Both the position numbers and the translations under genes were made by a program. Under the pieces are notes generated by a model. It was given only the letters and a program-made list of their open reading frames with translations. It had not been told where the DNA came from and searched no databases. This document shows positions 18,488 through 42,300 of a stretch of DNA of 64,000 nucleotides, in pieces (positions within the stretch are counted from its first letter, which is position 1; each line of letters opens with the position of its first letter). The DNA comes from Candidatus Thorarchaeota archaeon. Lineage in GTDB: Archaea > Asgardarchaeota > Thorarchaeia > Thorarchaeales > Thorarchaeaceae. The stretch covers positions 576,001-640,000 of the forward strand of contig CAVSBO010000003.1 of NCBI GenBank assembly GCA_963726195.1, given 5' to 3'.

Positions 18488-18955
18488 ATGATGTGTGAAG
18501 ATGAATGTCGAAACCTTCCGAGATTGACTGTAGAGATCATGGGGCCCTCATGGATAGCCGGAGCAGTGACCGGCATCAAAGCGTCCAGAAGACGAAGCAC
18601 GGATTGGATTTGGGAATGTTTCGTCGAGGAGTTGTATGACACAGTCGAGCGGATGGGAGGAATTCAACCAGCCGAACCAGCCAGCTCACCGGCGGACGAG
18701 GACGGCTTCGCGGGCTCAGCATACGACACGCTGGGGGGTTACGTGAGCACAGCAGGCGAAATCCGTTCTCAGGGACTCTACTTCAGTCTCTCTCCGAAAC
18801 ACTATGAGAACGTTATGAGCCTGCTTCCGGACTTTGTGATGCTCAGGGCAAGAGGTGGTCTCATTGTGCCACACTATGAACTACGTTCCTTCCTGAATCT
18901 CGTGCCTGTGAACGGGCCGTTGTTGGACCAACTAGCCGAGGGGGGCATGCAATGA
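18488..18955 (+). CDS. Hypothetical protein
   Basis: Starts 1 nt after the previous stop; its stop overlaps the RadA start (ATGA). Confidence 0.7.
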   Translation: MMCEDECRNLPRLTVEIMGPSWIAGAVTGIKASRRRSTDWIWECFVEELYDTVERMGGIQPAEPASSPADEDGFAGSAYDTLGGYVSTAGEIRSQGLYFSLSPKHYENVMSLLPDFVMLRARGGLIVPHYELRSFLNLVPVNGPLLDQLAEGGMQ

Positions 18956-20028
18956 CAGAGCTTGAGGCGGTATCAGGAGTCGGGCCTGCAGTTGCCAAGA
19001 AACTGCGAGAAGTGTTTGTGACAACAGCTGAACTTCTAGCTGTGCAGAATCATGTGGACTTGCAGAACAAGACCAAGATGGGAGAAGGCACCGCTCTGAA
19101 GATCATACGAAACGCCAGACAATTGGTTGGGCTTTGCGGTTTCAAATCCGGTCTCGAAATCGAGCAAGAGATGTCGAGCAAGCCTAGGTTGAGTGTGGGA
19201 ATCGACAAGGCAAATGCAGCACTTCTTGGCGGAATTGAAACAGGTTCGGTCGTGGAGTTCTACGGTGCTGCCCGAAGTGGGAAGACACAGTGGTGCGGTC
19301 AACTTGCTGTTATGGTTCAGCTACCCAAGGAAAAGGGAGGACTTGAAGGCCGTGTGCTTTGGCTGGACACGGAGAGCTCCTTCAAACCATGGATTATCCG
19401 GGCAAACGCAGTGCGGTTTGGTCTGGACCCGGATGTTGCCTTGGGAAACATAGGTCATGCTCACATCGTAATGACTGAACAGATGACGCAGCTGTTTGAG
19501 AATATACCGCAGCTGTGCGCGGAGCAAGACTACAAGCTCGTAGTGATTGACTCATTGACTGGACTGTTCAGAGCTGAATACACCGGGCTTGAGCTACTGA
19601 GAGTGAGGCAGCAGGAAATGAACAGCCTCCTCAATCTGATGAGACGAACTGGTACCGCGACTGGCACAATCTTCTGCTACACCAACCAGGTCATGGCGAG
19701 CATGGGGACATTCAGGTCGAACCCGAACTCGCCCGTTGGCGGGCACATACTCTCGCACGCTTCTGACTATAGGTTCTACGTCAAGAAGAAGCTGAAGGAT
19801 GTGAGGGGTCTTCAGCTTCAAGATAATGCTGGAATACCCGAATTCGATCTTGATGTTGTCATTGGTTGGGGAGGGTTTTACACAGATGCGAAAACGAAGA
19901 AGAAACTCGAAGCAGACGTTCTAGAGTATCTTAGGAAAACCGGCTGGAACCCTGAGATCGCAGAGAGTGGCGAGGACTCTGAGGAAGTAAAGGAAGAGAC
20001 TGAGGAGATTGCGGAGGAAAACGAATAG
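18952..20028 (+). CDS. radA: RadA/Rad51-family recombinase (divergent paralog with acidic C-terminal tail)
   Basis: N-terminal HhH (VSGVGPAVAKKL), polymerisation-like FKSG, GGIETGSVVEFYGAARSGKTQ, VQLPKEKGGLEG, LDTESSF, LVVIDS, FRAEY, RQQ, TNQV and PVGGHILSHAS. Confidence 0.85.
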   Translation: MTELEAVSGVGPAVAKKLREVFVTTAELLAVQNHVDLQNKTKMGEGTALKIIRNARQLVGLCGFKSGLEIEQEMSSKPRLSVGIDKANAALLGGIETGSVVEFYGAARSGKTQWCGQLAVMVQLPKEKGGLEGRVLWLDTESSFKPWIIRANAVRFGLDPDVALGNIGHAHIVMTEQMTQLFENIPQLCAEQDYKLVVIDSLTGLFRAEYTGLELLRVRQQEMNSLLNLMRRTGTATGTIFCYTNQVMASMGTFRSNPNSPVGGHILSHASDYRFYVKKKLKDVRGLQLQDNAGIPEFDLDVVIGWGGFYTDAKTKKKLEADVLEYLRKTGWNPEIAESGEDSEEVKEETEEIAEENE

Positions 20029-20475: not shown

Positions 20476-21102
20476 ATGTCCGACACCGAGCATACAACGA
20501 CACCCATCTGGGTAGCGCCCACGCCCCCGAATGTCGCAGGAAGCTCTCTCATAAACTTGGCCAACCTGCTTCTAAGAGAGACAAACAACCGGGTCACAAC
20601 GCTCCGACAATGCGATGGCCCGAATCCGGAGCTCTTCATCGTTTCAAGAGTAGATTGGAAGGATTCCGACCCAGAGAAGCCCATGCTGCCTCAGTTGCCA
20701 AAGATTCTTTCTCTGCTTGAGACTTTGCGTGAGACGAAAGGCGTGCCTCACGAGATATTCTTGGATAGTAATGATGGTGTCGCAGTCTACTTGCCAACTG
20801 GATCAAGGGTTTCTGACCTGCCGCGGAACCCAAAAGAAGCCCTTCGGGTTCTCATGGCTCTCGTCCATGACACCGTCGCGAATATGCTCTCAACAATGCA
20901 AGATGTAGAAAACTGCTTCTGGATTGCCGCTCGCAGAAAGGGGTTCAGCCCTGAGATAGTCCAGAGAATGGCACTGAAGGAGCAACACTACGACTCGCCT
21001 GCGCTGGTTAGGGAGTTTCATAGAATATTGAGGAAGTACTTCTCGATTCGTTTTCACATTCAGAGGAGCGAGTCATGCCTGTACGTTGAGGAGGAAGACT
21101 GA
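20476..21102 (+). CDS. Hypothetical protein
   Basis: 208 aa ORF coupled to neighbours (TGATG overlap with the helicase). Confidence 0.7.
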   Translation: MSDTEHTTTPIWVAPTPPNVAGSSLINLANLLLRETNNRVTTLRQCDGPNPELFIVSRVDWKDSDPEKPMLPQLPKILSLLETLRETKGVPHEIFLDSNDGVAVYLPTGSRVSDLPRNPKEALRVLMALVHDTVANMLSTMQDVENCFWIAARRKGFSPEIVQRMALKEQHYDSPALVREFHRILRKYFSIRFHIQRSESCLYVEEED

Positions 21103-23058
21103 TGGCAACTGTGAACGGTCCTCTCCGATACTTTCCATATACGCCCAGGCCGTACCAGGACCGGGCCGTTGCATTCGCCGCTCAAGTATTCTCATCCAAA
21201 TCGGTGGGACTTCTCTCTGCAGATTGTGGAGTGGGAAAGACCATCGCATCTCTTTCAGGCTACCTCGCTGCGCGTGCAGACGATGGCGAATCAAGGTTGA
21301 TTGTTCTCACCCGGACACACTCACAAGCTCGCGTATTCGAGAATGAACTAGTGACACTAAGACGCCTTCTTCCTTCTCTGACTGCCACGACAATCCAGTC
21401 GAGGGTCCATACCTGTCCAATAAAGGAGCAGGTTGGGTCAGTGTCTCTCACGGGGTTCATGAGAGCATGTGCGAATCTGATCAGGACAGGCAATTGTACT
21501 CATTACTGGGCCTTCTACAGGAAAGGGGATGGTAGAACTCAGATAAGGGACGGGGTTCAGCACGAAGTAGACGACCTGCTCGACTCCGGTGTTGTCACCC
21601 GGGACATTGTCGATGATCGTGCACGTGACATGGCTGTTTGCCCATATGAACTGATGAAACATTGTGCTAGGGAGAGCCGCATCGTGATAGGCCCCTATAG
21701 CTACCTGTTTCGCGCCCGTGTACGTGATGCGACTCTCAGTTCGCTGGCTACGAGCCTAGAGAAGCTCGACGTCATAGTCGATGAAGCTCACAATCTTCCA
21801 GGTCATATTCTGGAATCAGAAGCGGCCAAATTGAGTTGGGACGATCTCAAATGGCTGAAAGAGAACTCTGCTGAAATTGCCAAGGATTCTAGCGTGAAGT
21901 GGTTGGCCCAAGCCACGAACTTCCTCTGGGAGACAGTGACGATTGCCCTTGACGGATTGAATTCACGCAATGAGAAGGTACTTGACAAATGGGACGTGGC
22001 TCCAAGGTTCGTGGACGAGAACGGCTTGCGGCTTGTGAGTGCGGCTGACACGCTACTTGGAGACCCGGATGCTCTGTCGACCGTTGAGACTCCCTTCGAC
22101 AGACTGATTGAGTTTCTACTCGCAGCATTACGGGCGGCGAAGAGCGACGACTGGCACATATCAGTCGAAACTCGAAAATCGTTTCAGGAAGAACAGAGCC
22201 ATCCGGCTTGCGAACTCGTGATCAGGCCGCTGAACTCTGCCGGTCTTGCCGCGCCCGTGTTGAGGGGTGCGCGTTCTGCCCTTCTAATATCCGGCACTCT
22301 GAGACCTCTCGAGTACTATGCGAGACAGCTAGGTATAGCCAAACCACTCTCAGAGGACCTAGCGAGTCCCTATCGACGTGGGACAAGACTCATACTGGTT
22401 GACAAGAGTGTGACTACCAAATATGAAGCTTAGAAACGATGAACTCTGGCGTCGAATGGCTCAACGAATCCAAACCGCTCTCTTGTCACTGCCCGCAAAC
22501 AAGAGCGCTCTCATAGCCTTCCCGAGTTATGCGATTCTGCATGAAGTCCTCAGCTATGGGATAGACACAGGATATCGGGGGACGATTGTAGAGAGTCCGC
22601 GAGAGCGAATAGAGAACCTTGTGGAAGCAATCCTTGAAGGTCCAAAGGCCGTTTTTTGCGTCTATGGCGGGAAGTTCAGCGAGGGCGTGGATTTGGCTCG
22701 AGACGGTTCGAGCCTACTCGAAATGATAGTCGGTGTGGGGTTACCGTTTACGCCACCTAGTAGCTACTTGGAGGCACAGCGGAATTGGCTCGACGCAAGA
22801 TTCGGTGAGGGCACGGGGTACTTCTATGGCTCAGTCATTCCGTCCGTAAGGCAGGTTCTGCAGCTGATTGGCCGATTGAGAAGATCGCCGGAGGATTCAG
22901 GCGTAGTAATCCTACTTGACAATCGTTTCCTAAGGTACACATCTGTCTTGGGCGAGGACATGGTATCTGACATCTGGCCATTTGCAGACCTCGAAGAAAT
23001 GAGACTAGCTATTTCTGAGTTCCAGAGACAGAGGGAGGTATGCACGATTGCGTCTTGA
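21102..23058 (+). CDS. XPD/Rad3/DinG-family Fe-S DNA helicase (frameshift at ~22428)
   Basis: Q motif FPYTPRPYQ, motif I GVGKT, TRTHSQ, four Fe-S cysteines (HTCP, RACA, GNCT, VCPY), DEAH and SGTL. The second ORF has FPSY, GGKFSEGVDL, VGLPF, QLIGRLRR and LLDNRF. Confidence 0.9.
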
Positions 23059-23650
23059 TTCAGTTCGAAATGAGTGGGTCCTGCTGTCGGTGCTACTCTT
23101 GTTTTGGTCCTACAAGTCAGTCACAGAGACTGGCATTCCCATCTCGGAACTAGTGTGGCTTGCCGGTCTAACAATCACAGTGGCAATCATGGTGATTCTC
23201 AAAGGGACGAACCGGAAACCACTCGTTTTGTGGAACGACCCCGATGGAATCCTGATGCTGGTGAGACCTTGGAGAGTAGAAGCATGCGCCGCCAGACTGA
23301 TGACAAGCGTCCCGTTGGGAATAGACCTCACTCGTTCTGCCTGGCGGGTATTGCAGTCAATGCATCCCGCAATGTCGGATGGCAGGAGTCGTTCACTGAG
23401 ATTCTTTGTTTGCAGGCCTCTAGGACAAGGGCCTTCACGTGTTGGCATCATCGTGGCGCGATCAAGATTCAGAATCGGTAACAGTGGAAGAAGGAGCGCG
23501 GCACTTTCGGATAGTGTTCTGCAAGATGCGAGAATCCTTGAGGGTGCAATGAAGGCAGCTTATCCACATATGCCCATCGAGAAAGCCGGCTTGCCCGATA
23601 TCATGATGGTTGTCCAAGGAGGAGTCCAATCCGTTGCAGAGCTCGAGTAG
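23048..23650 (+). CDS. Hypothetical membrane protein (2 N-terminal TM helices)
   Basis: Hydrophobic WVLLSVLLLFWSY and LVWLAGLTITVAIMVIL; GGAGGT RBS; overlaps the helicase stop. Confidence 0.7.
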   Translation: MRLDSVRNEWVLLSVLLLFWSYKSVTETGIPISELVWLAGLTITVAIMVILKGTNRKPLVLWNDPDGILMLVRPWRVEACAARLMTSVPLGIDLTRSAWRVLQSMHPAMSDGRSRSLRFFVCRPLGQGPSRVGIIVARSRFRIGNSGRRSAALSDSVLQDARILEGAMKAAYPHMPIEKAGLPDIMMVVQGGVQSVAELE

Positions 23651-23942
23651 TCAGAGAACCGGGTTGACCCTGCCTCACAACGTGAAACCCGAGGCATTGA
23701 TGGATGCCCTCACAAAAGGTCATGGGTATCAATGGATTACCCTCGCAAGGCGGCCCGTCCTGTTAGTGTACGGTGAAGCGACTTCTCAAGAAATGCCCCA
23801 GCTTCTCTTTACGGGAAACACCACGCTCGTTGTTTCGAGTGCTGACCCAGCTTATGTGGAGCGTCTAAGAAGAATGCTGCAAGTACTCGAGCAGCAGGAA
23901 GAGAAGCAGTTCCTAGCACAGGAGGCCAAGAGCGGTGAGTAA
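23634..23942 (+). CDS. Small hypothetical protein
   Basis: TTG behind GGAGG; overlaps both neighbours. Confidence 0.6.
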   Translation: MQSSSSQRTGLTLPHNVKPEALMDALTKGHGYQWITLARRPVLLVYGEATSQEMPQLLFTGNTTLVVSSADPAYVERLRRMLQVLEQQEEKQFLAQEAKSGE

Positions 23943-26271
23943 AGGGTTAGTGGTGGGTCCCAAGCCCGAATATGACCCCTTTGGCGAAAGGACACAGTCT
24001 CCACAGGAGACATCTCCAACCGGAGAAATCAGGTGGGACAACAGAACTGCAGGCAGGTCCTTCAGACAATTAGGTGCAATGGGAATACTCATAGCTGTGC
24101 TTGGCACCGCATATCCTGAAGGTCTTCTCATTGGAACCGCGGCGATTCTCGCAGGCATCTTCTTACTATCTCGATTGAACGGACCTATGAAGATCGATGG
24201 CTGGATAACGTTGCAGCAGGGCGACGTTAGTCTTTCTTCGTCTGCTGGCAACCTTGAAGTCACCGATGTGAGGGGACGCAAGTATGCTGTCGGCATGACC
24301 TTGGACTCTGCTGGTGTCCACCTACTCGGAGACATGGGAGCACTCGTGCGGGCCGCGGACGACTCTAGCGGACTGTGTCTGTTGGTGAGTTTGAAGCCGA
24401 AAGATGGCAAAGCAATCCTGCAGGAAGACAAGATTAGCAGGTCCACTTGCAGGTTCTTGAATTCTCTTTCTGAAGAGGCGCTCAAGGGGTACTTCGATTC
24501 TCGTGGGGGTCTGTGGGCAGTCCATGCGACACTTATCGGATACGCAAGAGAACAAATCGGATTGCCTGTTCTTGAGTCCGCTTTGAAAGCGGCTGTGCCC
24601 GACCGCGGCTGGCAGACCATGAAGCCATTCGAATTACGTTCGCACATTGAAGAGGATGATGTCGTCGCCGACAATTCATCTTTCTATGGGACCGGGGAGG
24701 AGTTGTCCAAATGGCTGGTCCAGATGGCGACAGAACTATCGTCAGAAGTGGGCACAAACGTCCCGGCGGAATTCGTTGCGCCAATCAGAGAAAGAGAAGC
24801 AGACTACAAGCTAGGGTTCGTAATCAATCCTGAGACATTGCGGCTAGGTCCTCGAGTTGGGCTGTCCCACGGGGATCTCCTAGGCGGACTGATGGTTTGC
24901 GGGGGAACCCAGCCCGAAAGAGGGCTTGTATTGTCCCTTCTCACGGCGGAACTCCTGCAATCAGGCAAGAGAATCATCCTTGTGACCAATGACCGTGGCA
25001 CATTATCCTTGACAGGTCTGTGTGATGGCGCAGTCGGCCTTGAGCTTGGAAAGGACTTGGTGTTGAATCCTGCAGACCCAGAAGGAATGCAGAGAACAGA
25101 GTACGTGCCGCAGCTCATCGCGGCGCTCGAAGTGCTGTGTGGCACTGAGCTACGAACTGCAGTCGAGCTTGAGATTGCCGTCAACAGGGCGGCGAGTCTA
25201 GGAAACGGAACTGTGGCCGACATTGCGATGGCTGATTCCGCGGCAATGGGCACGACCACTGAGACTGATGCTTCGATTGGGACCACTGTGTCGAAGGCAT
25301 CACTGCTCGGCTTTGATGCTGTCCGCTCATTGCGTCAAGGCTCAGGGGCCAATGCATTCTATGGCACACAGACTGTATCGCTCCAGACGATGGCTCAAAC
25401 ACCCCTAGTTGTCATCGTGATGTCCCTGGAATCTTCGGCACTTCAGAGATTCGCTTGGGACCTGTTGTCAATAAAGGTCAGTGGAATGAAACCAGACTCC
25501 GATTTGGTTGTCATCCTTGATAACCCAGAGAACCTGCGAGTCAGGAATAGACCATTTGGAAATCGTGATGTTCGAAGCGAGAACATAATTCGCAAGCTGA
25601 TAATCAGAGGACCATTACTTGTTGCTTTGGACCATCCTGCTGACATGGCCGTCGGAGCCATCGGCAACCTTTCTTCATGTCTATCACTTCGACTCCGCGA
25701 TAGTGCAGACCTGAAAGTTGCTTCCGATCTTTTGGGTCTTGGAGTCATCGCCACGGGACTACACAGCAAGGCCAGACAATCATCCAGAGAGACATCCTTC
25801 CTGCGTGTCATGCCGCCGGACGTGGCGGTTCTGTCACGCGGCAGATCGGAGATTGGTATCCCAATTAGGTTGGACAAGACACCAACATCCCTCGGAACAC
25901 CTCCTCCACAGGAATTGTCGCGCAGGATATCTCGGTTTTCGCCGAGCTCCAAGGACAAAGAGACTCAGGCCAAGACTCTGCTTGAACAAGTCGCAGGCGG
26001 AGACACGGAGTTGGCCCGGAGTGTCCTCCGTTTGTTGATGAGGTACGAGCCTCTCACTGAGGAGGCCGTTCGGAAATTCATTAGGTCGGACAAGCGTCAT
26101 GAGAATGCGGACGTCGAGGGAATCTTGGCCCGCTTGGAAAGGGCGAACATGATTCTTCGTGGGCACGAAGTGCACGGCGGTGTATCTTACACTAACTTCC
26201 GTGTTACGATGAAAGGAACAATGGCAATGCGGCAAGAAGTCCCAGAAGGTGGTCGCGATGTTGGTCACTGA
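23935..26271 (+). CDS. Membrane-anchored HerA/VirB4/CedB-like (DUF87) ATPase homolog with degenerate Walker motifs and C-terminal wH domain
   Basis: Two N-terminal TMs. VGLSHGDLLGGLMVCGGTQPERG at the Walker A position, ELGKDLVLNPADP, VVILDNPENL at the Walker B position, and ALDHPADMAVGAIGNLSSCLSLRLRDSADL. Confidence 0.65.
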   Translation: MSKGLVVGPKPEYDPFGERTQSPQETSPTGEIRWDNRTAGRSFRQLGAMGILIAVLGTAYPEGLLIGTAAILAGIFLLSRLNGPMKIDGWITLQQGDVSLSSSAGNLEVTDVRGRKYAVGMTLDSAGVHLLGDMGALVRAADDSSGLCLLVSLKPKDGKAILQEDKISRSTCRFLNSLSEEALKGYFDSRGGLWAVHATLIGYAREQIGLPVLESALKAAVPDRGWQTMKPFELRSHIEEDDVVADNSSFYGTGEELSKWLVQMATELSSEVGTNVPAEFVAPIREREADYKLGFVINPETLRLGPRVGLSHGDLLGGLMVCGGTQPERGLVLSLLTAELLQSGKRIILVTNDRGTLSLTGLCDGAVGLELGKDLVLNPADPEGMQRTEYVPQLIAALEVLCGTELRTAVELEIAVNRAASLGNGTVADIAMADSAAMGTTTETDASIGTTVSKASLLGFDAVRSLRQGSGANAFYGTQTVSLQTMAQTPLVVIVMSLESSALQRFAWDLLSIKVSGMKPDSDLVVILDNPENLRVRNRPFGNRDVRSENIIRKLIIRGPLLVALDHPADMAVGAIGNLSSCLSLRLRDSADLKVASDLLGLGVIATGLHSKARQSSRETSFLRVMPPDVAVLSRGRSEIGIPIRLDKTPTSLGTPPPQELSRRISRFSPSSKDKETQAKTLLEQVAGGDTELARSVLRLLMRYEPLTEEAVRKFIRSDKRHENADVEGILARLERANMILRGHEVHGGVSYTNFRVTMKGTMAMRQEVPEGGRDVGH

Positions 26272-28463
26272 GACTGACATACCAAGCTACGTTCAGAAAG
26301 TGCTTGGTGGCATCGGCCTAGCACCGCGGGGCGTCCAAAAGGCGGCCATTGACAACGGGTTGCTCGAAGGAAAGAGCATCATGGTATGCAGTCCGACTGG
26401 TTCAGGCAAGACTCTCGTTGGCGAAATGGGTGTTCTTCGAGCTGTGGTTTCTGGTCGAAAGGGGCTGTATATGGTACCACTTCGGGCTCTTGCGCTTCAG
26501 GTCGCATCGATATTCAGAGAGAGGTACGGAAGAATCGGCATCAGAGTCGGAATGAGCACTGGAGACTATCAGACCGACGGATCGGAGTTGGCAGAATGTG
26601 ACGTTGTTGTTACAACATATGAAAGAGCCGACTCTCTCCTGAGGCATCAAGCGTCTTGGATAACCGAGATAGGCACGATCGTGATTGACGAGGTTCAGAG
26701 TATTTCAGAACCAAGAAGAGGAGCCCGCCTCGAGAGCACGATTATTCGATTCAACCGGCTTGTCGACGACCTACAAATCATAGCTCTCTCGGCTACGATA
26801 GCAGCTCCCGATGAACTGGCAGAATGGCTTCGATGCGATCTTATCGAGAGTGACGAGAGGCCCGTTCCGCTCCACTGCAAAGTCCTATGCTGCAATAGCA
26901 AACAGGGAATGGTCAAGGACCTAGTTATGACTACTGTGCAAGGGAACGGACAAGCAATCGTTTTCCATCGAACCCGAAGAGAAGCTGAAGTTGAGGCGTT
27001 CCGTCTAGCGTCAGATGTAGGCCGTCAGACTCACAATAGCAGAGAGGAACCGCCTCGACACCGAGCTGGAGTCTCTCGAGAACTGGGCAGTCAGAGTACC
27101 GTCGGAATTGAAGACTGTGATGCACGATGGTACCGGCTTCCACCATGCGGGTCTCAACGCTAGAGTCCGTGATGTTGTTGAACGGCTGTTTCGCACCGGG
27201 CTCATTAGGGTGGTTTGTGCCACAACAACTCTCGCCGCCGGCATGGACCTGCCAGCTCGCACAGTCATAGTCACATCAGTGATTTCGCCTGAGAACAACG
27301 GAGAACTCCTAAACGCCAATAGGGTGCACCAGATGCTCGGCAGAGCAGGACGCCCGAGCCATGACAAGATTGGAGTCGGCATCATACTTGCAGGAAGCGA
27401 GGGCGAAGCTGACGAGCTTGAAGTGAGGTACTTTGAAGACAGAACTGGAGAAGCTGCCGAAGAAGTTCTAATCCCGAAGTATGACAGAGCCAGAAGTGTC
27501 CTAGGTTCTCCGAGTTCGACCACTGAGCAGCTTTTGGTTGCCCTCGATGCAATGGGAGAAGCGTCACTGCAGGAAGTCGAGGACGGAATAATGAGCCAGT
27601 CATTCTTGACGTATTGCGGTATTAGGGACACCCATTCTCCCGCGCGCCTGATCAATCTCGGGGAAATTACGGCTCAGGCCGCAATTGAACACCATGCTCT
27701 GCCCGATTCGCTTCGTGCAGCCAGACAGAAGCTGCTGGGTGCTGTGACTTTCAGAGAGAAGGACGAGACCGCCATAGGTGCCATAGTCACGGACTGGGAC
27801 CGCACTCAATACACATGTCGGTATTCCACTCGGCTATCAAGCAGTGGACTTGTGGATGGCCCACAATGCTCCTGCGGCCGGCCCATTGACCCCCAAGGCA
27901 TACTCTGTACGCACCTGCTTGTGTTGGGTCTGTCAGCGGCCGCGGAGCTGGGTAGCTTGGCAGACTATGTCATTCCCTTGTCTCTCAGCGAATCAAGTCC
28001 ACTTGGTGTCTTGACCAAGCTCGGACTAGTGGAGGGCGCGGAAGAGGGAAAGCTTAGGCCAACTAAGCTTGGGCGTTTGGTCAACCGGTTGTATCTAGGT
28101 CTGCCAACAGCCAGGGAAATGATTGCCCTTCTGCCTACAGTGGAGGACAGTACTTCCCTGCTCTGGCTCGTCAGGCACTTGGTTTCACTGGAAACGGGCA
28201 TGGCGCTAACCGAGCAATTCGAACAGCTAATCGCTGCATTAGCGTCTACTGACACAACAATCGCGGATTTGGCAAGGATTGCGGAACTTCACGAAGGAGA
28301 CGTATACGGTCTCATAGAGACAGTGCGATGGTTGCTGCATTCCATTGACGCCGTTGCGGCCCTCGGTGGATTGTCGAATGTCTGCGGAATGACAACCCGG
28401 TTGTCAGATGCTATCGAATCTAGAATGAAAAAGGGTGAATCCAATGACAACAACGGAAGCTGA
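26258..28463 (+). CDS. Ski2-like (Hel308/HELQ-type) DNA helicase with inserted SWIM zinc finger (frameshift at ~27029)
   Basis: SPTGSGKT, PLRALA, TTYERADSLLR, IDEVQ, LSAT, RPVPL, FHHAGL, ATTTLAAGMDLPA and QMLGRAGRP; SWIM CSC-x11-CTH; PTKLGRLVNRLYL. Confidence 0.88.
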
Positions 28464-30219
28464 CACACCAATGGATATTCCCGAGAAGACCAAGCAATCT
28501 CCTGGAACAGCCAATCAAACGGCAGCGCAGGAAGAGACCAGACGAGAAGCCAGTGACATCACTGCCATCCTAAAGAGCTCGGGTCACAGGGTTCATGTCT
28601 ACTCAAATGGGATCATACTAGGAGTCCGACTAGAGGCAATTCCCGGGACCCACAGCGTGCATGTTGACATCGCGCACGTGGTTGACCTGCGTTCAGGGAA
28701 AGTCTGGAAGACCACTACCGCTATGATGGCTGCGGTATTGGGACTTGTTAACAAATCGCTCCAAAGCATTCTCGAGGACATCGGTCTTGAGGAATCGCTG
28801 AAAGAGAAGCTATTGACTATGCCTTGGGGTCGAATTCGCCTGTCCACGCTTTTGGCACAATCAGGGAAGACCTCCTCGATAGCAATTGAGACGAGATGGG
28901 CGTATGTTATCTACAACGAAGTCCGACCCAAAGCAGACCTTTCCTGGCTGACAGATACAAAGAGAGTACTGAGTATCACCGACTTTGCTCTTTCGCGCCA
29001 GAGCGACATAAGGGCGTCAGCTGCGAAGCTGAGAACCATAATAGCCACTAACAAGACCAGCATGATTCGGGGTGCTGTGGGAAACGGGTGGTATGGCGTG
29101 CTAGCCCTTGTCGCCTCATTGGGTGGACTGATGACTGCCTCAGCGGTCGGCCTAACGCATCCAACCGGAATGGCCATTCCGCTCGTCTTTGCAGGAGTGG
29201 CGGGAGCCGTTGCCATCGACCTTCTATTCACATCAAGAAAGAGGTTCAAAAAACTCGTAAGCGTATTGAAGACCGAGAACCTACGTGCGTCTGAAGTGGG
29301 AGACTCTGTCAGAGCCAAGGAATCGGCTGCAAAGAACCGAGATCTGCTAGAGCTATTGGAAGACCTCACTTTCGTGGTTTCTCCCCTGATGGTGATGGCG
29401 GCTGAAGCACTGCAAGCAGGAGAAGTTGACCGCGCTGTTTCGTCAGCCTCTTGCGTTCTGGATGAGTGTGTACGGCTCGCGCCTTACTCTGGAGACAACG
29501 TGGAACCTATCCTTGGGAGAACAGACGAAGGCCTGAGGAGGTTTCTCGGATTCATGAAACGTCTCGGGGCCACATCAGAAGAAGAGACCTTGGCGGTTGC
29601 CTACGTGGGACTCACGGGACATCTATCGAGTCCGATTGGATTCAGTGAGGTTGTCGCCCACATGACATCACTGACCAATGCGCTCTATGATGTTGGAGTG
29701 CTCAGCCAAGAAGCAAAGGACAAACTCGACAACGTCATGAACACGTGGGCCATGAAGAAGTACGCTGGTGAACTTGAAAATAGCCTTCGAGAACCAGATG
29801 AACCCGAGCCGGTTCCATCTTCGACGCGGGCAGAAGTAGGGACTCAACCAGAACTCACCCACCCTGTGGCGCGCAAGAGGCAAACCGACAGACAAGGTGA
29901 TGTCAAACAGACGTTTGGGCTCATCCGTGATTCTACAACCACTCCTGAAGACTCGCCGCCCATAGAGAAAGTGAAAACACCTGTTGTGTTGCCGATGCAG
30001 GAGTCGCTTGACAGAGCGGATCCTATGAAGTCTACCGGCCGCGACGACCGAGGTCCATCTGAGAAGGGAGGCGAAGTTGTCAAGGTTACGATTCGCAAGA
30101 GAGACAACAGGATTACTCAACTGCAGAGTCAGAAGCCTCTCGCAGAGGCTGTGGTCGGACAGCCTGCCAGCGGACATGCCGCGAAAGGAGAAGAAAGCAA
30201 TGAGGACCCAGACGTGTAG
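28444..30219 (+). CDS. Hypothetical membrane protein (central TM hairpin, disordered C-terminal tail)
   Basis: Hydrophobic WYGVLALVASLGGLM...MAIPLVFAGVAGAVAIDLLF; P/E/K-rich C-terminus; overlaps both neighbours. Confidence 0.7.
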   Translation: MTTTEADTPMDIPEKTKQSPGTANQTAAQEETRREASDITAILKSSGHRVHVYSNGIILGVRLEAIPGTHSVHVDIAHVVDLRSGKVWKTTTAMMAAVLGLVNKSLQSILEDIGLEESLKEKLLTMPWGRIRLSTLLAQSGKTSSIAIETRWAYVIYNEVRPKADLSWLTDTKRVLSITDFALSRQSDIRASAAKLRTIIATNKTSMIRGAVGNGWYGVLALVASLGGLMTASAVGLTHPTGMAIPLVFAGVAGAVAIDLLFTSRKRFKKLVSVLKTENLRASEVGDSVRAKESAAKNRDLLELLEDLTFVVSPLMVMAAEALQAGEVDRAVSSASCVLDECVRLAPYSGDNVEPILGRTDEGLRRFLGFMKRLGATSEEETLAVAYVGLTGHLSSPIGFSEVVAHMTSLTNALYDVGVLSQEAKDKLDNVMNTWAMKKYAGELENSLREPDEPEPVPSSTRAEVGTQPELTHPVARKRQTDRQGDVKQTFGLIRDSTTTPEDSPPIEKVKTPVVLPMQESLDRADPMKSTGRDDRGPSEKGGEVVKVTIRKRDNRITQLQSQKPLAEAVVGQPASGHAAKGEESNEDPDV

Positions 30220-30886: not shown

Positions 30887-31858
30887 ATGTTTGGAGGCAT
30901 TCTATGGAAAGGAATTGTGTTCGGCATGGCAGTCATGCTGGTCTTGACTGTCGGGACCGAACTCTTGGCATCAGTCGTGTCCGTCGTGGTGTCTGCCCGC
31001 CGCGGCGACCTAATTCCTATTGTCACGGTCTTTCTCGGTACTCTCTTCATTTCCCTAATCCTGCGGCGACTCAAGAAGCACTCTCCGACCAAGTTACTCT
31101 TGTCAATCTTGGTCTACGGAACAATCGGATACGCAGCCGTGGTTTCATTCATAGCTGTTCTTCCATGGGGCCTTCTTCCATCTCTCATGTCCGCGTCGAT
31201 GACAATACTTGGCTTCTCGGTTGCAGCGACTCCCACGCGGTTTGGAGCGTATCGTTCGCAGACCAAGCTTCGTTCTCTGGCACTGCGTACAGACAACCCA
31301 TCAGGTCGAATTACATCATCGGCGATTGCTGCTCTGTCCGACGCCCTCACGGAACAGGCAAGGGTTGTAATCATTCAGGAAGGGGACAGGGACAAGGTCG
31401 TTCAGCTCATGAAGGAGCGACCCCTTCTGCCCGTATCGATTACTCGCCTTGCCGACTGTTATGCAGTTGTCGTCACGTCCCCAAATTCCGACGAGGTTGT
31501 CTTTCGCAGAGCAATCGACACATTGTCAGAGTTTGGCATATCCCGTGTGAAGCGCGCACGGCATTTGCTCGCAGAGGCTATCCTCATGCTTCCGCTCATT
31601 GACGAGTCATATGGTTTCAGCATGCGTGAGTACCGAGTTGTAAGGGACGACACGACGATGACGCACGTGATTTCTCAATGGCCCGAAAGACTGACTATCT
31701 TTGCGACCAAAGAAGGTCTCGGGGCTCTGGTTCCGGAACGGGCCGCCACAGGTCTGAAGACTGAGCAACTCCCGCGCGGCCTTGAAACCGACGTGGTTCT
31801 GTTTAGGAATTACTCTCTGCTCCAAGGAGATGATGAGTCTGGATCACAAGCCGCTTGA
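30887..31858 (+). CDS. Hypothetical membrane protein (about 4 N-terminal TM helices plus soluble domain)
   Basis: Hydrophobic first ~115 aa; AGGAG upstream; 3 nt after the previous stop. Confidence 0.72.
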   Translation: MFGGILWKGIVFGMAVMLVLTVGTELLASVVSVVVSARRGDLIPIVTVFLGTLFISLILRRLKKHSPTKLLLSILVYGTIGYAAVVSFIAVLPWGLLPSLMSASMTILGFSVAATPTRFGAYRSQTKLRSLALRTDNPSGRITSSAIAALSDALTEQARVVIIQEGDRDKVVQLMKERPLLPVSITRLADCYAVVVTSPNSDEVVFRRAIDTLSEFGISRVKRARHLLAEAILMLPLIDESYGFSMREYRVVRDDTTMTHVISQWPERLTIFATKEGLGALVPERAATGLKTEQLPRGLETDVVLFRNYSLLQGDDESGSQAA

Positions 31859-32570: not shown

Positions 32571-33557
32571 ATGGGCGTGAAGAAATTCAGCGTGATACCG
32601 TGGATCTGGGTCGGTTCAGACGAAATCTTGGGAACGATTGCTATTGATGCGCCGAACTACATCACGCGAAGAATCTCAGTCTTCAAGCAGAAGAACAAGT
32701 ACAAAGACCGAGTACCTCTTGAGCACCTTCTACTGGGATTCGGCCTTATCAGGACTGCACTCCTGAACAAGGTCTTGCCAGTCTTGATTTTCGATGGACC
32801 GCCAGAATCATTGAAGAGGGAACCAAATCCGGAGCTCGTAGCAAGAGCTCACGAAGTCTATTCTGAGTACTCGCAAGACGGCGACCCATACAACGAAGAA
32901 GTCGCCAAGAGCCTTTCAAGTAGCCCAGCGCTACGCATGTACTTCGCGGCCCAGCACCTCAGAGACTTGGGCCGTGCGATGGGTGTGCCCACTTTGACTG
33001 CATCATCTGAGGCGGAAATGCTGTGCGCGGCAATGTGCAGAGACTCCCTTGTCAAGACAGTCGTATCAAATGATGCAGACGCCATGCTCTTTGGAAGCCC
33101 TCACGTGACGAACCACATGGAGTTATCTCGAGGCCGCATCTGTCGAGCCACCCTTCATGACCTTGAAGAATCATTGTGTCTCGGCCTGGACCAACTGAGG
33201 GACTTGGCAGTTATCTGCGGCTGTGACTTCAACAATGAGGGCATCAAAGGGGTGGGTCCTCATCGGGGAGCCATCCTGTTGAAGAGATACGGGAATCTGG
33301 AAGCTGTGTTGAGAGCGAAAGGGTATGGACGAGCTGAGAGAGAACCGCTGCTTCTTGCGCGTGAAGTCTTCGAACAGACTGCGTACATTTCGCTGGCAGG
33401 TCTCGACATCGCACTTAGACCGCCCATGGTCTCACGGCTGGTTTCGATTCTTCTGCCTTGCTTTGGTCGCCAAAGAAGCGAGGATTCCGCTGAACAGATG
33501 GTCAGCATCTGGCGGGATTTTGGAAAACATCAAGCCACTTTGGAGCAGTGGGTGTAG
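32571..33557 (+). CDS. FEN1/XPG-family 5' flap nuclease paralog with C-terminal PIP box
   Basis: MGVK, IAIDA, IFDG, SEAE, SNDADAMLFG, GCDFN, H3TH GIKGVGP and terminal QATLEQWV. Confidence 0.9.
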   Translation: MGVKKFSVIPWIWVGSDEILGTIAIDAPNYITRRISVFKQKNKYKDRVPLEHLLLGFGLIRTALLNKVLPVLIFDGPPESLKREPNPELVARAHEVYSEYSQDGDPYNEEVAKSLSSSPALRMYFAAQHLRDLGRAMGVPTLTASSEAEMLCAAMCRDSLVKTVVSNDADAMLFGSPHVTNHMELSRGRICRATLHDLEESLCLGLDQLRDLAVICGCDFNNEGIKGVGPHRGAILLKRYGNLEAVLRAKGYGRAEREPLLLAREVFEQTAYISLAGLDIALRPPMVSRLVSILLPCFGRQRSEDSAEQMVSIWRDFGKHQATLEQWV

Positions 33558-36390: not shown

Positions 36391-39300
36391 ATGAGAACCA
36401 AATGTCTTCTTGTTGCGGCTGTCCTAGTCGTGCTCATTGCATGCACGTACCAGTATCCGGCCACCAGCGGTTATCCGGCGTCGGCACCGATTCCTGCCTT
36501 TGCTCTAGGCCCTCAGAAAACAACTATGAGCCTAGCATCAGATGATGGGGCTCCTGTTGACATGAAGCCCTACTTCATAATCGAGATGCCAAATTCGAGC
36601 ATTCCAGCACGAGGGAGGGTCTGGTCAGCAATCCTAAACTCCGCGGGCATCGTAAGTCACGTGTTTACCATACAACAAATCATGGCAAAGCCCACATTGC
36701 TACAGCATGTCCCCGCAGCTCTCCTAGATGCAAGCTTGGGTTCAGCAAACGGGAGCCAAGTGTCAAGCTCGTTCATGCATTTGCTCGTCTCCTGCGATGT
36801 CGCTTTGGTACTGACCGGCAGAGCAGCTTGGCTCTTGCACAGTCTGAGGGGAACACCTTTGGGATCAGTGACCGCAACGGCTTCTCAAAGACTCCTCACA
36901 GCTCAAGGATACGAAGCGGCAATATTCCTCAGCCTCTCCAATCGCGCTGTCGGTGAATTCCGCGCTCACGGAAGAGACCAATATTCAGTTACCAGTTGAC
37001 CAAGTTCAAGGCGAGCATTCTCGCATTGTGAATCTCACTGGGGCGGAGAATCCAACAAGCGTCGCAGCGCTTCGATATGATTCGTACCCGCTTGACACAT
37101 TCCTGTTTGGTCCCGATGACCCCTCCAAGTTAACAGACCAAGGTCGTGGACTGTTGGTCAACATGATATCATTTGCGGTTTCTCTCAGAGAGACTCCTAC
37201 CACCCAAGCAGTGAGCCAGCTTCAGGCACCCTCCGAGGCTCCGCTTGCTGGAGGATATCACTATCCGCATGAACCGACTCTGAAGGCAGCCTACGCCGCG
37301 GTGCACTCAGTCAAGTCTGCGCTGGACGCATCAAACTGGTCTAGCTGGAGTTCCCAGCATCAATCACTGATTGAAGAACTCCTAGATAGTCTGTTCATTG
37401 ACTACGGCTCACAGGCCGGGTTCATGAACTCGGTGAGTGAAAACACGGTCGGTCTTCAGAGCACAGCAGAAGGACTGTGGCTGGCTGCCTCTATGGGCCT
37501 ACTTCCACGATATCACTCCGACAAGATTGTTTCGTATCTCAGCTTCAAGAGAAGACGCCGGGGGAGGCTTCGCCAACGATATTGCGACAACGTACTTGGT
37601 TGTCGAGAGTCTTGGTTTGTCAGGCAATCTTGGAAGCATCAACACAGTCAGTCTGGAATCTTGGTTGCGCAGCTGCATCATAGATGGATCCAAGACATCC
37701 AACCCCGATCTCTGGGGTGCAGTGGGACAGAATCCGAACAGCACCGCGGCGAGGACATCCTACGCGGCTCAATATGTACTATCTCTGCAAGTACTGGGGA
37801 AAACTCACGGCGACCCGCTCAAACTGACGAGCTGGATCAAGACCCGCATGTCCAATGGTGACGGTTCATACATGGAAGTTTTTGGCTCAAGTGGTGAACT
37901 CGTCACCGGAACCTCGTCAGCTCTCACGGCTATGGCAATCATGAACACACTCAGCGCTCAAAACCGGACGACAGGACTGTCTTGGCTGGCTTTCAACCAA
38001 TTGCCTTCGGGCGGCTTTGGTTTGACCGTAGCGGCCACTGACAACGTGGGCAAGACGTGGCCCACTCTAACAGTCGCCCTATGCATCCAAGCGATTGGAC
38101 AACAATCTGAGTCGATGGCAAGGAATGTGATTAGCTTCGTATCGCTTTGTGAGAACCGATATGGGCTTTGAAGCGATGGAACCAATACCATCGCTCATGT
38201 GGAGCGATTGGCTCGCGTCAATCTCAAGGCTGTCACATTCGGAAGGATTCTCGGATAGTGCTCTTGCCGAAATGTATGCCGTTAGCATGCTTGGGTGGTC
38301 TGAATACCCAGGCAATGTGACCGCTGCAACATCTATTGAGTACGGGCCCACCCAGTACCGAATGCAGAGCGTTTGGACACAGTACTTCGGGGCAGCCACC
38401 TACTCCGCACTCGGCAGTGATATTCCTGATTCCGCGGTCTCGGCTGCCGAGTCGTATCTTTACCAGTGTCAAGATTCGTCAGGACATTACAAGCCAACGT
38501 CATTTATGGGAACGCCGCAGATGCAATACACAGTTGCGGCCGTCGAAGCTCTCTATTTGATGAACGCACTCAACACGATTCGTTACAGGACCAGCCTAGG
38601 CTCGGCGATTCTGGCCGAGTTTAGATTGGGGCACTGGTCAATGGATGGTTGGACTCTCAGACCATTTACCAACCAGCAATCTGCAATTGACTGGCTCTGT
38701 ACAAGAGCCGCTCTCAGACTTGGTATACTCGACTCTGCAAAAGCCCTGCAGATAGTGCAATCAATCAAGGCGAGAATCCAGTACTCTGACATCTGGGCAC
38801 TCAGCAGAGATGTTGCAACTCTGGCACTTCTCAATGCATCGGGATTTCAGGCGAGTCTTGGGTGCATCAACACACAGGCAGTCATCCAGTCTCTAGGCAG
38901 CACGCCCTTCTCAAACGGATGGCTCAACTCGACTGACCTGTGGCAGCCCGTCTATACCGCAGGAGCGCTGGAGATGATTTCAATCCTAGGTCTCCGCGCA
39001 CGCCTTGCGAACCTGTCGAGCGGCTCTATTCACGCGACCGGACCATCAACGGGAGAGATTAGCTCCTCTCTCAATCTAATGGTCTCGATTTCTCCACTCT
39101 CCGGTCATCATAGTGTCCTTGTCTTTGCGTTCGGAAACTGGCTCCTGTTTCGGAACGTGGGTGACAACGATTCGATTGAACTCACAATTCCCAGTGACTA
39201 CAGAGTTCTTGGTCCAAGCAACATATCCGTTATGCTTCGGGACTTCGGCGTGACAAAGGCATACTCCATAGTCCCACTGCAAGTACGAGGCGTACTTCAA

Positions 39301-42300
39301 GGGAGCCTGCAAATAGCAGCTTCCAGACTGCCACGAGGCCACAATGTCAACGGCAGCGTTGTTTGGTCATTGGAACACGGATTATCTGCGGGTCAAACGC
39401 ATGCTGTGATCAGCCTCGGAGACGGAATTCTTCACCAACAATGGGAATACTCTGCTCTATCGCCGCTTTCATTCTCAATACCGTCCTCAGGATTCCCGAA
39501 CGGGGTATACAATCTCACTGTGCGACTAGACAGTCCATACTGCCAGAACCTCAACTTAACAGGACAAGTCGCACTTCTCGAACCCGTAGAGACCTACATC
39601 TCAGCACCAGCTTTCATTCAGGGAAATGTGAATGCGACGCTGAGCGTACCGTGGTCTTTGCGCTACAGCAGTAACGGCAGTAAGGTGCAAGCACAGCAAG
39701 TCAGAATCACTATCAAAGATCAATCAGGGGCTACGGCACTTAACCAATCAGGGGTACTGTCTCCGTTCACCTGGGCTCCTAGTCAAAGAGGGAACTACAG
39801 CTTCATTCTATCGTTCTCGGGCCATGACAGTCTTGAGGGCTCATACTTTGCTGGAGCAATCAGCATCTACGAGAATACGAGAGTAGAGTGGCTGGGGGTG
39901 CAAGTGCAGAACCAGTATTCGAGTGCATTCTATGTGGTGAAGTTGTCTACACAGCGCGGAGTACCGTTGTCGAACCGTACTATACAAGTTACTGTTACGT
40001 CTCCGTCCTCTGCAATAGTCTTGCATACGCAAATGATCACGAACTCGACGGGGTTCGTCAAACTCAGCTTCTCACTGAATGAGAATGGAATCTATCTCTT
40101 GGACGCATCATTCTCAGATTGTGGGTTCCTGATAGGGTGTGCGGCCAACCAAGGTCTTGTGTCTTGGTCGTCCAGTTCGCTAGTTGTAGGCGGGGCGACA
40201 CCCGAAGCATTGGTCCAGACACCGTGGAATCTGTGGGCACAACTATCTGATTCTGGCTCTGCAGCAGTTGCAGGTGCACAGGTGACAGTGAGAATCATAT
40301 TCTTGCCATCAACAGTTGTAGTGCAGCAGACACTAACCACAAACCTGACCGGCTACGTAATGATTCACTGGTCGGGTAACACCGCAGGCACATACAGGTT
40401 CGAAGCGGAGTTCAACGCAACCCTTTCCAGAGGCCATTCCATCAGTTCGGTTGTCTATGAGCTCCGGATTCCTCTGGTTCTTGTTGTGACCGTGGGCGAC
40501 AACCCTCAGGTAGGGCAGGATAACTGGATTGAACTCTCAGCTCTGGATTACAGAGGTTCTCTAGTTACGGGCTTGACGGTGGCGATTGTTGTTAGGGGGC
40601 CGACCGGCCAAGTAGCATATCAGACGACACTAGTGACACAGAACGGGTCAGTTCGTGTGGCATGGCGACCTGGCAACCGAGGAGTCAACACGATACTAGC
40701 CACCGCGGGACGTCAGAACTGGTACGAGAGTGCAGAGAAGGACATCGATGTCGCGGTCATGGAGTCCCCTCAAGTCTCAATCGAAATACCAACATCTCCA
40801 GTCGCCCCGGGTTCCATACTTATTGCAGTAACTGTCAGAGACCAGAATCAGTCTAGGATCCCCAGTGTCTTGGTAACAGTGGCTGCGTCTATTGATGGGC
40901 AAATCATTCTTACTTCTACGAACCTCACTTCCAGTGCAGGCGAAAGTGACTTCCTTCTCCTGATGGGGCACCCGGGCACACTAAGTGTAAACATAACATG
41001 CCCGACACAGGGATGGCTAATTCGAATATCAGTACTGAGTCAGCGTACCGTGCTCGGTCTAACAAGCCTGAGCCTAACGTCACCGGGCCAACCGGTCAAG
41101 CAAGGGTCGCTTGCAGGGATTGTAGTAACATTGACCGACTACTCGGGAAACCCAATTATCGGTGCTCAGATTAACTTCATCATTGGCTGGCCCAATGGAA
41201 CGATCTGTGCATCTGCTTCTAGGACCACCGGGGCTAGCGGAAAGTGTAGTCTAGCATACACTTTCAACACGGTTGGGGATTTCGTGATCAATGCCTCCTT
41301 CGCAGGCGCCGGGCTCCAAGCTCCTTCAAGCCAGTGTGAGCCCCAAAGAGTCTATGTCATTCCCACCGTCGTTATAGTGCACGACCCCTCCTATGTCGTT
41401 GGGCAGAGCATTGACTTGGGCGTCGGGCTGAGAGATGCGCTCGGATACAACATCGCAGGCAGAAGCCTGCTCTTGAGAATCAGCAATGGCAATCAAAGCC
41501 TCTTTCAGACGCAAATCCAGACAGCTGACAGTCTCGCGCACATCTCTTGGACTCCAACGAGTCGAGGACAGATGACTATCTTAGTTGTATTTGCTGGAGA
41601 CACATACTACCTGGCAAACTCAACAACATCCCCAGTGTCTATCATGGAACTCGCCACAGGGACCCTCCTACTGTCTGCGAAGCAGATAGACATGTTCGGA
41701 ACTGTTCAGTTCCAATATTCTCTGACCAGCCAAGGTAGCGTAAGTGGAATTACGGTGCATTTCCAAGTGCTGGATGTCAACTTGGTTCCGGTCTGGACGT
41801 TTGAAGGTACGACGAACAGTTCTGGCATTGTCATGGTGTCATATGCGGCTCAACAAGCGTATGGAATCCTGATGGCCCAGGCCGAGCCGGAAACGGATGA
41901 GTGCTTGTTAGGCGCGGGAACACAGAAGCAGCTGATAGTTGTAACCAATGCTCAGCTGTCCGTAGAATTCGAACCCGAGCCGCCTTGTGCAGGCAACGAA
42001 GTAGACGTGTCAATACGTGTCCAAGATGAGCTTGGATTACCCATAGATGGTATCTCTGTTGTGGTCAAAATCTACGATCCCTACGGACAGCAAGTCAAAC
42101 TGGGATCGATGTCAATGTCAGTCACACTTCAGGTAAGAAACGGGACAGCCCAACTAGCGTTCACGCCTCAATACTCCGGCCTTTACACTCTTGATGCCTC
42201 CTCCTCAGGTTCTGTTGTCGTACACACGTTCCAAAGCACCACACTGCACACGGTGTATTCACTGACATCACTGACGTTGTTCGTTCAGTACCCATGCATG

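Follow-up and report, generated by a model that had tools for sequence, protein, structure and literature searches.

A membrane-anchored VirB4-type protein with a conserved, remodelled nucleotide site in an Asgard recombination operon: a candidate non-motor hub

We analysed a 64,000-nucleotide stretch of DNA (the window) from a Candidatus Thorarchaeota archaeon (GenBank assembly GCA_963726195.1, contig CAVSBO010000003.1, positions 576,001 to 640,000 of the forward strand), and within it a 778-residue open reading frame (ORF), the target, which lies among genes for DNA recombination enzymes. Structure prediction assigned the target to the VirB4-type branch of the FtsK-HerA fold, behind a two-helix membrane hairpin, and alignment of 70 sequences revealed that its nucleotide site departs from the canonical form in the same manner across the family. 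The interpretation that we favour, with a little more than even confidence, is that the target is a membrane-anchored VirB4-type protein with a remodelled site that would serve as a non-motor hub at the membrane; ring formation, handling of DNA and lack of ATPase activity are what we infer for it. The fold itself is already known; the novelty lies in a conserved variant of it, which combines an arginine-type P-loop, a hairpin of its own, a winged helix and a recombination operon, and whose named members are Asgard archaea. An earlier note, made from the window sequence alone, had proposed a membrane-anchored HerA/VirB4-like pseudo-ATPase at this position.

The predicted fold is VirB4-type in both domains

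Searches with the single protein sequence assigned no family. The target had no match in Pfam at E ≤ 0.1, in NCBIfam at E ≤ 1 (VirB4 models included) or in PHROGs; the VirB4/CagE/TrbE and DUF87 sequence models were not matched, a genome scan with PF01935 missed the target ORF, and phmmer against all PDB sequences returned only one chance match (E 1.1). The sole PADLOC match to the target was a weak match of its winged helix-turn-helix (wHTH) part to JetA (E 0.002). The VirB4 relationship is visible only through the family profile and the predicted structure.

An AlphaFold2 model of the whole protein, built from a 63-sequence alignment (A2), had a mean predicted local distance difference test (pLDDT) score of 83.2 and a predicted template-modelling (pTM) score of 0.62. 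A Foldseek search of the PDB returned 147 matches at E ≤ 0.001, led by TrwK/VirB4 of R388 (8rtd_O, E 3.5e-13) and HerA 4d2i (E 2.0e-11), followed by defence HerA proteins, TrwB and the VirB4 of Thermoanaerobacter. With VIA-align, the best match was the VirB4 C-domain 4ag5_A (Z 28.5, root-mean-square deviation (rmsd) 2.8 Å over 326 residues, model residues 281–653), followed by DndH-C (Z 24.9), HerA 4d2i (Z 24.4), TrwB (Z about 21) and FtsK (Z about 15), and the predicted model has the RecA-like topology of the FtsK-HerA superfamily. The A2 profile, compared with PDB sequences, matched the HerA chains 8ziq (E 1e-6), 8xau (E 1.5e-6) and 8yho (E 2.6e-6) over the stretch from Walker B to the RLR motif.

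Because full-length TrwK chains align with the model from about residue 94 onward, residues 84–278 were folded separately, using a 35-sequence alignment (A3). The resulting N-domain model (pLDDT 78.0, pTM 0.71) had 11 Foldseek matches at E ≤ 0.001, all of them TrwK/VirB4 (best E 1.1e-5, TMq 0.61, 179 columns), and the first unrelated chain appeared at E 0.1. VIA-align against 48,161 chains reached Z ≥ 8 only for TrwK 7o42_A (Z 8.9, rmsd 5.0, 178 of 195 residues, chain residues 210–405), with the runner-up at Z 6.1 over 90 residues. The target N-domain corresponds only to the latter half of its VirB4 counterpart, and in the predicted model it precedes the ATPase domain. Because VirB4 4ag5 is the best fold match and the N-domain matches only VirB4/TrwK, the target is, on the predicted models, VirB4-type in both domains and not HerA-type. 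The structural comparison thus bears out the RecA-like HerA/VirB4 fold proposed in the earlier note, and narrows that label to VirB4 type.

The resemblance to VirB4 (TrwK of R388 and VirB4 of Thermoanaerobacter pseudethanolicus; 4ag5, 7o42 and 8rtd) extends over both domains and to a membrane association; the genes immediately upstream code for small membrane proteins, an arrangement that recalls virB3-virB4. The target differs from VirB4 in lacking the Walker A GK[ST] and the catalytic Glu, in having its own two-helix membrane hairpin and an added C-terminal winged helix, and in that no other type IV secretion system (T4SS) component was recognised near it. With HerA it shares the superfamily fold and a profile similarity that runs from Walker B through the sensor to the RLR motif. 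HerA itself has an N-terminal barrel and works with NurA or another effector partner, whereas the target N-domain matches VirB4 and none of the HerA N-domains, an absence from the match list that leaves a difference in fold unproven. A reading of the target as a HerA-NurA-type protein was rejected, as its N-domain matches VirB4 only and Pfam scans of the operon gave no match to NurA or another HerA partner. FtsK/SpoIIIE proteins likewise combine a membrane anchor, a motor-like domain and a C-terminal winged helix, to which the FtsK gamma domain may be likened; the structural match to them is, however, much weaker than that to VirB4, no FtsK_SpoIIIE family match was obtained, and the target N-domain is VirB4-like and the motifs are lost.

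The nucleotide site is remodelled in the same way across the family

The motifs on which the earlier note had relied, xLxxxDL, LGKDLVLNP and DHP...IGN...LRL...D, were all recovered in place by script, with GLSHGDL at residues 309–315 (nucleotides 24859–24879); a motif of the LGKDLVLNP type is one that we take to be a hallmark of VirB4/VirD4/HerA relatives. Walker A (CGGTQPERG) and Walker B (ILDNPE), which the note had put at about 24892–24924 and 25510–25530, were located within a few nucleotides of these positions (Table 1), and neither GK[ST] nor DE is present.

Residue counts were made on 70 sequences aligned to the family hidden Markov model (HMM), namely the 63 of A2 and seven ORFs from loci fetched from other genomes (five forms of 1261–1417 residues, one split C-domain gene and one 790-residue form). 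In the HMM alignment to HerA (u155161), GGTQPERG lies on G-S-T-G-S-G-K-S with the canonical loop length, and R329 falls on the Lys of GSGKS. At Walker B the target LDNPEN ('vvllDdaen') is set against HerA EEAHN ('VVCEEAHN'), and further on DHP is aligned to HerA QRP, within a segment aligned to HerA 'SQRPS ... LRL..D'. Active ATPases of the FtsK-HerA superfamily have a conserved polar sensor residue, which in HerA is the Gln of the QRP motif, and an arginine finger.

None of the 70 sequences has a canonical [AG]xxxxGK[ST] at the P-loop. Instead, R329 and G323 are each present in 66 and G324 in 55, and position 330, which is Ser or Thr in active enzymes, is variable. The Walker B position 529 is Asp or Glu in 61 of the 70; the catalytic Glu position 530 holds Glu in eight and Asp in 18. 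Position 566, corresponding to the HerA sensor Gln, is Gln in nine sequences and Asp, Glu or Asn in 45, and the position after it is Arg in four. Positions particular to the family are strongly kept: N378 (63/70), P379 (64/70), P568 (59/70), D592 (63/70), Arg or Lys at R586 of the RLR motif (68/70) and, in the HSKARQSSRE loop, R614 (68/70); K612 of that loop is present in 45/70. Among 31 sequences with a mean column identity of 58%, the motif residues G323, G324, R329, N378, P379, P568, R588 and D592 are invariant, and the motif conservation extends down to 17–25% identity.

Judged from these alignments, the motif pattern of the target goes beyond chance, and its conservation reads as constraint and not as decay. 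Because no member carries the canonical Walker A and the replacement residues are conserved, the canonical catalytic set appears to have disappeared before the Asgard lineages sampled here separated, with the new form of the site kept ever since. The Walker loss that the earlier note had described in one protein is thereby a property of its orthologues. That note had also called the protein catalytically dead. The motif loss stands, and would leave the target unable to hydrolyse ATP; 'dead' is possibly too strong a word, as the P-loop length, the glycines, an Arg, the Walker B acid and the basic residue of the RLR motif are kept, and a nucleotide or a phosphate may yet be bound by the conserved Arg loop and the retained Walker B Asp. 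Ratios of nonsynonymous to synonymous substitution (dN/dS) against the orthologues in loci L038, L019 and L017 added nothing to this, with synonymous sites saturated and dS undefined, and we claim no selection statistic; the closer homologues (85% and 72%) were available as protein sequences only.

An alternative, unlikely in our estimate and yet to be taken seriously, is that the family is a nucleotide-dependent machine. ATP or some other nucleotide would then occupy the Arg-type P-loop, and the protein would hydrolyse it slowly or be switched by it. The kept Walker A length with G323 and G324, the basic residue at the Lys position in 66 of the 70, and the frequencies of the Walker B acid, R586 and D592 (61, 68 and 63 of the 70) fit such a machine, and the strong conservation of the site suggests that something is bound there. 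On the other side, no Ser or Thr is provided for coordination of Mg2+, position 330 being variable, and of the 70 sequences only eight have the catalytic Glu and only nine the sensor Gln. Lys-to-Arg changes in Walker A, moreover, usually abolish hydrolysis.

The family is widespread in Asgard archaea

A word-indexed search of 5.8 billion proteins found 46 homologues (E ≤ 0.001, 38–99% identity), nearly all of 760–786 residues and none with a precomputed Pfam domain. Those with names are 'hypothetical protein' entries from Thorarchaeota metagenome-assembled genomes, together with two from Promethearchaeota and one from Lokiarchaeota. Searching 1.84 billion cluster representatives with phmmer gave 65 matches at E ≤ 0.001, 48 of them at 1e-10 and 26 at 1e-30, including proteins of 500–980 residues at 21–28% identity; the named distant matches come from Freyrarchaeum/Freyarchaeota, Baldrarchaeia, Asgardarchaeia and Njordarchaeota. 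All members that carry an organism name are Asgard, the name-bearing members being a minority.

When 301 genomes from the window's phylum were searched with the profile, 266 had a match at E ≤ 1e-5. Many of these matches are weak (1e-6 to 1e-20) and probably reflect a general likeness to HerA/VirB4; nine families of the phylum contain strong ones (E < 1e-100). The target gene is thus widespread, and is either not universal or was missed in some genomes. It is single-copy in the window's own genome.

The architecture varies between lineages. In some lineages two adjacent genes divide the protein between its domains, as in L050, where a gene for about 280 residues with the transmembrane (TM) hairpin and the N-domain is followed by a gene for a soluble protein of about 520 residues with the C-domain and the winged helix (L050:8531-10947). 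Other lineages have proteins of 1230–1420 residues with long N-terminal extensions and TM segments (L051:8458-12243; L053:8169-12422). These long forms adjoin conserved membrane proteins of about 285 and about 250 residues.

A membrane hairpin and a winged helix flank the VirB4-like body

The features of the target and of its immediate neighbours are collected in Table 1. The GTG start overlaps the stop of the upstream 110-residue gene, the end overlaps the start of the downstream helicase gene, and the aligned start position is common to the target and its orthologues (31 sequences). The two N-terminal TM segments named in the earlier note are seen both in hydropathy (peaks at residues 48–66 and 61–79) and in the model (helices at residues 43–59 and 61–81), and TM segments are retained in the split and the longer forms of other Asgard lineages. 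The cytoplasmic N-terminal tail ahead of them carries near-invariant short motifs and may be a docking peptide.

Table 1 Features of the target and adjoining genes in the window
Feature	Coordinates	Strand	Remarks
Target ORF	23935..26271	+	778 residues, GTG start; longest frame there
N-terminal tail	23935..24060	+	Residues 1-42; near-invariant G8, P11, D14, P15; W34, R37 (31 sequences); low pLDDT
Two-helix membrane hairpin (predicted)	24061..24177	+	Residues 43-81; very short turn YPEG
VirB4-type N-domain (predicted)	24184..24768	+	Residues 84-278; folded alone
RecA-like P-loop domain, FtsK-HerA superfamily, VirB4-like (predicted)	24769..25929	+	Residues 279-665
Remodelled Walker A loop CGGTQPERG	24898..24924	+	Residues 322-330; length as GxxxxGK[ST], R329 at the Lys position
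LGKDLVLNP motif (strand and 'NP' turn)	25045..25071	+	Residues 371-379
Walker B strand ILDNPE	25513..25530	+	Residues 527-532; D529 retained, N530 at the catalytic Glu position
LDHP...IGN...LRLRD segment	25627..25701	+	LDHP residues 565-568, IGN 576-578, LRLRD 585-589
HSKARQSSRE loop	25762..25791	+	Most conserved family-specific motif; in a low-confidence loop (residues 605-614), predicted flexible
PadR-like winged helix-turn-helix (predicted)	25972..26244	+	Residues ~680-770
Upstream two-TM protein	23048..23650	+	200 residues; same position in 5/5 same-family loci
Upstream small protein	23610..23942	+	110 residues; found in 4/5 same-family loci
Hel308/Ski2-type helicase	26249..28463	+	Pfam DEAD, Helicase_C; two frames in window

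The C-terminal domain, which the earlier note had described as winged-helix-like, is modelled as three helices followed by a beta hairpin and one final helix (helix-helix-helix-strand-strand-helix), and the family profile matched the PDB chains 3l7w (E 9.1e-4) and 1xma (E 0.01) there, with several PadR chains at E 0.07–1. Together, the topology and the PadR/MarR profile matches identify a PadR-like wHTH. Two relatives have weak Pfam PadR/HTH_34 matches below the cut-off.

These matches, and the PadR-family, HTH-regulator or wHTH names that source databases give to some relatives, would also suit a membrane-tethered transcription regulator, which would bind an operator through its winged helix and use the VirB4-like body for sensing or sequestration. 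We regard this as improbable by a wide measure: the winged helix makes up about 90 of the 778 residues, the VirB4-like body is at least as conserved, the gene stands within a tightly packed operon of enzymes, and the source names are automatic.

The target belongs to an operon with a second set of recombination genes

Gene context was compared in twelve 20-kb loci from other genomes, with 17 query pieces that represent 15 genes (the two frameshifted helicases of the window being halved). The order begins with two uncharacterised proteins, RadA, a Zn-ribbon protein, a further uncharacterised protein, XPD, the 200-residue TM protein, the 110-residue protein and the target, and continues with Hel308, a 594-residue TM protein, a RadB-like protein, a 4-TM protein, a degenerate Rad51-like protein and FEN1. 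All 17 pieces occur in the same order in three of the five same-family loci (L047, L048 and L056), and 15 and 14 in the others (L055 and L057). A locus of a second family (L049) retains RadA, the Zn-ribbon protein, the uncharacterised protein next to it, XPD, the target and Hel308, and in one of a third family (L050) the split target is accompanied by RadA and a divergent Hel308. Hel308 adjoins the target in 6/6 Thor-type loci and lies nearby in two loci with the 1260-residue form (L051 and L054); no operon query was found in L052, L053 and L058.

Because the operon RadA (18952–20028; 182 against 313 bits), FEN1 (32571–33557; 62.8 against 90.6 bits) and XPD (21102–23058; 70.7 against 102.5 bits) score below other copies in the genome, the operon is a dedicated second set of recombination genes. 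The better-scoring copies in the window's genome lie at C3:520799, C16:169794 and C16:54239, the other XPD (C16:169794) being about 2 kb from another Rad51-like ORF (C16:172366).

Four membrane proteins are encoded in the operon, at 23048–23650, 28435–30219 and 30887–31858 and, as the hairpin, in the target. Sequence scans gave no family match of these four to VirB3, VirB8 or another T4SS part, and neither the 200-residue nor the 110-residue upstream protein had a family match above the cut-off. The 110-residue protein has a sub-threshold Pfam Secretin_N match (E 4.2e-5, 24.1 bits against a cut-off of 28.2). The 200-residue protein and the target N-domain have a common 'LE.A.(K/R)AA.P' motif, and their elements are arranged alike; a reading of the former as a paralogue of the N-domain was not supported by hhalign (probability 27% over 30 columns against A3, 1.3% against A1). 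An ORF of 1631 residues lies at 38149–43044, 4.6 kb downstream of the operon.

The operon invites comparison with the DNA-import systems of other archaea. According to an excerpt of PMC11868833, CedD consists of a TM region, an N-domain akin to a portion of that of VirB4 and a HerA/VirB4-like C-domain, an architecture to which the target conforms, and the consulted parts of PMC11868833 and PMC11823120 report that CedD is needed for DNA import in Sulfolobales. In the Ted loci of Thermoproteales, VirB4-like and HerA-like genes stand with Rad50, which the authors interpret as a coupling of import to recombination (PMC9905601, in part); a link to homologous recombination is common to the Ced/Ted systems (excerpts of PMC9905601 and PMC11823120) and the target. 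CedD (NF053655) is also the only curated ATPase family matched by several relatives of the target, with nine of the 63 A2 members at E ≤ 0.001, and no other such family recurs among the 63; the best match has E 2.2e-12 and 46.4 bits against a cut-off of 600. Neither the target nor, above the cut-off, any ORF of the genome matched it. CedD differs in that the papers, as far as excerpted, call it an ATPase, whereas the motifs are lost in the target and a winged helix is added; they also place CedB and CedD in Crenarchaeota, whereas all named members of the target family are Asgard.

These likenesses raise the alternative that the target is part of a Ced/Ted- or T4SS-like system for DNA transfer between cells, whose partner would be an active VirB4/VirD4-type ATPase from another locus, in the way that CedD has CedB. 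The VirB4-type N- and C-domains with a membrane anchor, CedD as the sole recurring curated match, the four membrane proteins and the recombination enzymes alongside are consistent with it, as is the Ted precedent in the excerpted PMC9905601. Within the operon, however, we found no family match to a pilin, VirB6/CedA or VirB4/CedB, and CedA, CedA1 and CedB were not recognised there. A candidate partner ATPase elsewhere was also sought. At least eight other ORFs of the genome score above the Pfam DUF87 cut-off (the target is not among them), and a membrane-bound active VirB4/HerA partner was not found in the genome; the two best other profile matches, in C4 (637 residues) and C5 (769 residues), have an intact GKS/GKT and no hydrophobic segment, and were rejected as soluble HerA-like proteins unlinked to the operon. 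Taken with the family scores, none of which attained a curated cut-off (46 bits against 600 for CedD), this makes the DNA-transfer alternative rather unlikely.

A role in HerA-associated defence against viruses (of the Sir2-HerA, DUF4297-HerA or Dnd/DndH-like kind) was considered as well, and we give it a very small probability. Its attractions are structural matches to defence HerA and the DndH C-domain at Z 18–25, and HamB model matches in the C-terminal half of the neighbouring helicase. The HamB matches, however, concern only a generic helicase C-domain; no PADLOC model fell on the ATPase-like body of the target, and no PADLOC ATPase or effector model on the uncharacterised operon proteins apart from weak matches of the 110-residue protein to Cas5d (E 0.006) and of the Zn-ribbon protein to LmuB (E 0.00066). 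A nuclease or Sir2-type effector was not recognised, and within the family the genes keep their order, with no sign of an island. On the PADLOC results the defence reading was set aside as unsupported.

A non-motor hub at the membrane would account for the operon

Returning to the non-motor hub, we propose the following mechanism. The N-terminal hairpin anchors the target in the cytoplasmic membrane, where the protein, no longer working as an ATP-driven motor, would oligomerise like its relatives and probably form a ring-shaped hub. This hub would join the small membrane proteins of the operon to its DNA enzymes, namely the second-copy RadA, XPD, Hel308, the RadB-like protein and FEN1. Contacts with DNA or a partner protein would be made by the winged helix and perhaps also by the HSKARQSSRE loop, and any movement of DNA would be powered by the flanking superfamily 2 (SF2) helicases Hel308 and XPD. 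It is the gene context that suggests this hub or tether role, as it does the ring or scaffold of the earlier note, which would channel DNA or tether the helicases while its neighbours supply the motor, and the place of the target in such a complex would resemble that of CedD/VirB4 in Ced/Ted DNA import and in type IV secretion systems.

Several observations weigh against this interpretation. By a hand count, only 51 of the 76 genomes assigned to the same family as the window have a strong orthologue, and two genomes of the same genus (93% and 85% complete) have only weak generic matches. The kept P-loop length, glycines, basic residue and Walker B Asp may permit nucleotide binding and even slow hydrolysis. 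No VirB6/CedA-like or VirB2-like family match was obtained among the operon membrane proteins in the sequence-family scans. Finally, none of the public runs listed as holding the stretch is an RNA run, a result that has no bearing on expression.

Carried one step further, the hub would belong to an Asgard membrane machine for DNA handling, in which a VirB4/CedD-type ATPase gave up motor chemistry ahead of the divergence of the Asgard lineages and is now the centre of a second recombination system, with the SF2 helicases pulling the DNA; we put this forward as a tentative and, on balance, doubtful extension. If the DNA were to come from another cell, the system would be the Asgard counterpart of Ced/Ted exchange of chromosomal DNA. 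VirB4-type proteins constitute the one ATPase that is common to type IV secretion, conjugation and the archaeal Ced/Ted derivatives (PMC9905601 and PMC11868833, as excerpted). They are understood as motors, and here a VirB4 body appears constrained despite the loss of its catalytic residues. The family thus offers testable entry points to a VirB4 scaffold without ATP hydrolysis and to membrane-coupled DNA exchange or repair in Asgard archaea, a lineage close to eukaryotes. The structural assignment also aids annotation, there being no Pfam or NCBIfam model and the current labels being 'hypothetical' or, misleadingly, PadR/HTH regulator. In the full-text literature we found no description of the Asgard family or operon, with the supplementary homologue tables of PMC11868833 and PMC11823120 outside the scope of the search; the excerpts of PMC12993045 and PMC10946056 do not mention them.

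Public contigs confirm an uninterrupted target gene

The stretch from 21000 to 28500 was compared with contigs from four public runs of two studies (two peat and two freshwater-sediment metagenomes), two of which cover it without gaps. For the target ORF, the differences listed are substitutions only, with no indel, and none of those listed falls in the P-loop or Walker B codons; a further 21 differences on the stretch are not in the list.

The window has an extra base at 22430 and at 27029, where the XPD gene (frames 21102–22433 and 22423–23058) and the Hel308 gene (frames 26249–27163 and 27108–28463) change frame. Contigs X1 and X2 lack the extra base at both positions and X4 lacks that at 27029; X3 and X4 do not reach 22430. 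Relatives carry XPD and Hel308 each in one frame, and the two helicases are most likely split in the window through misassembly or a peculiarity of the strain. The frame changes are not evidence of decay of the operon.

These two single-base frame errors are what would lend credit to the idea that local decay or sequencing error removed the Walker motifs of the target itself. Set against them are the 0/70 relatives with the motif, the absence of an indel in independent contigs and a full-length ORF collinear with its orthologues, which together refute that idea and leave it a practically negligible probability.

The comparison also bears on where the organism lives. The two peat-metagenome runs hold the stretch nearly whole, at about 99% likeness, and the freshwater-sediment runs hold pieces of it with almost no differences (none in X4, one in X3). 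The organism thus occurs in peat and freshwater-sediment habitats.

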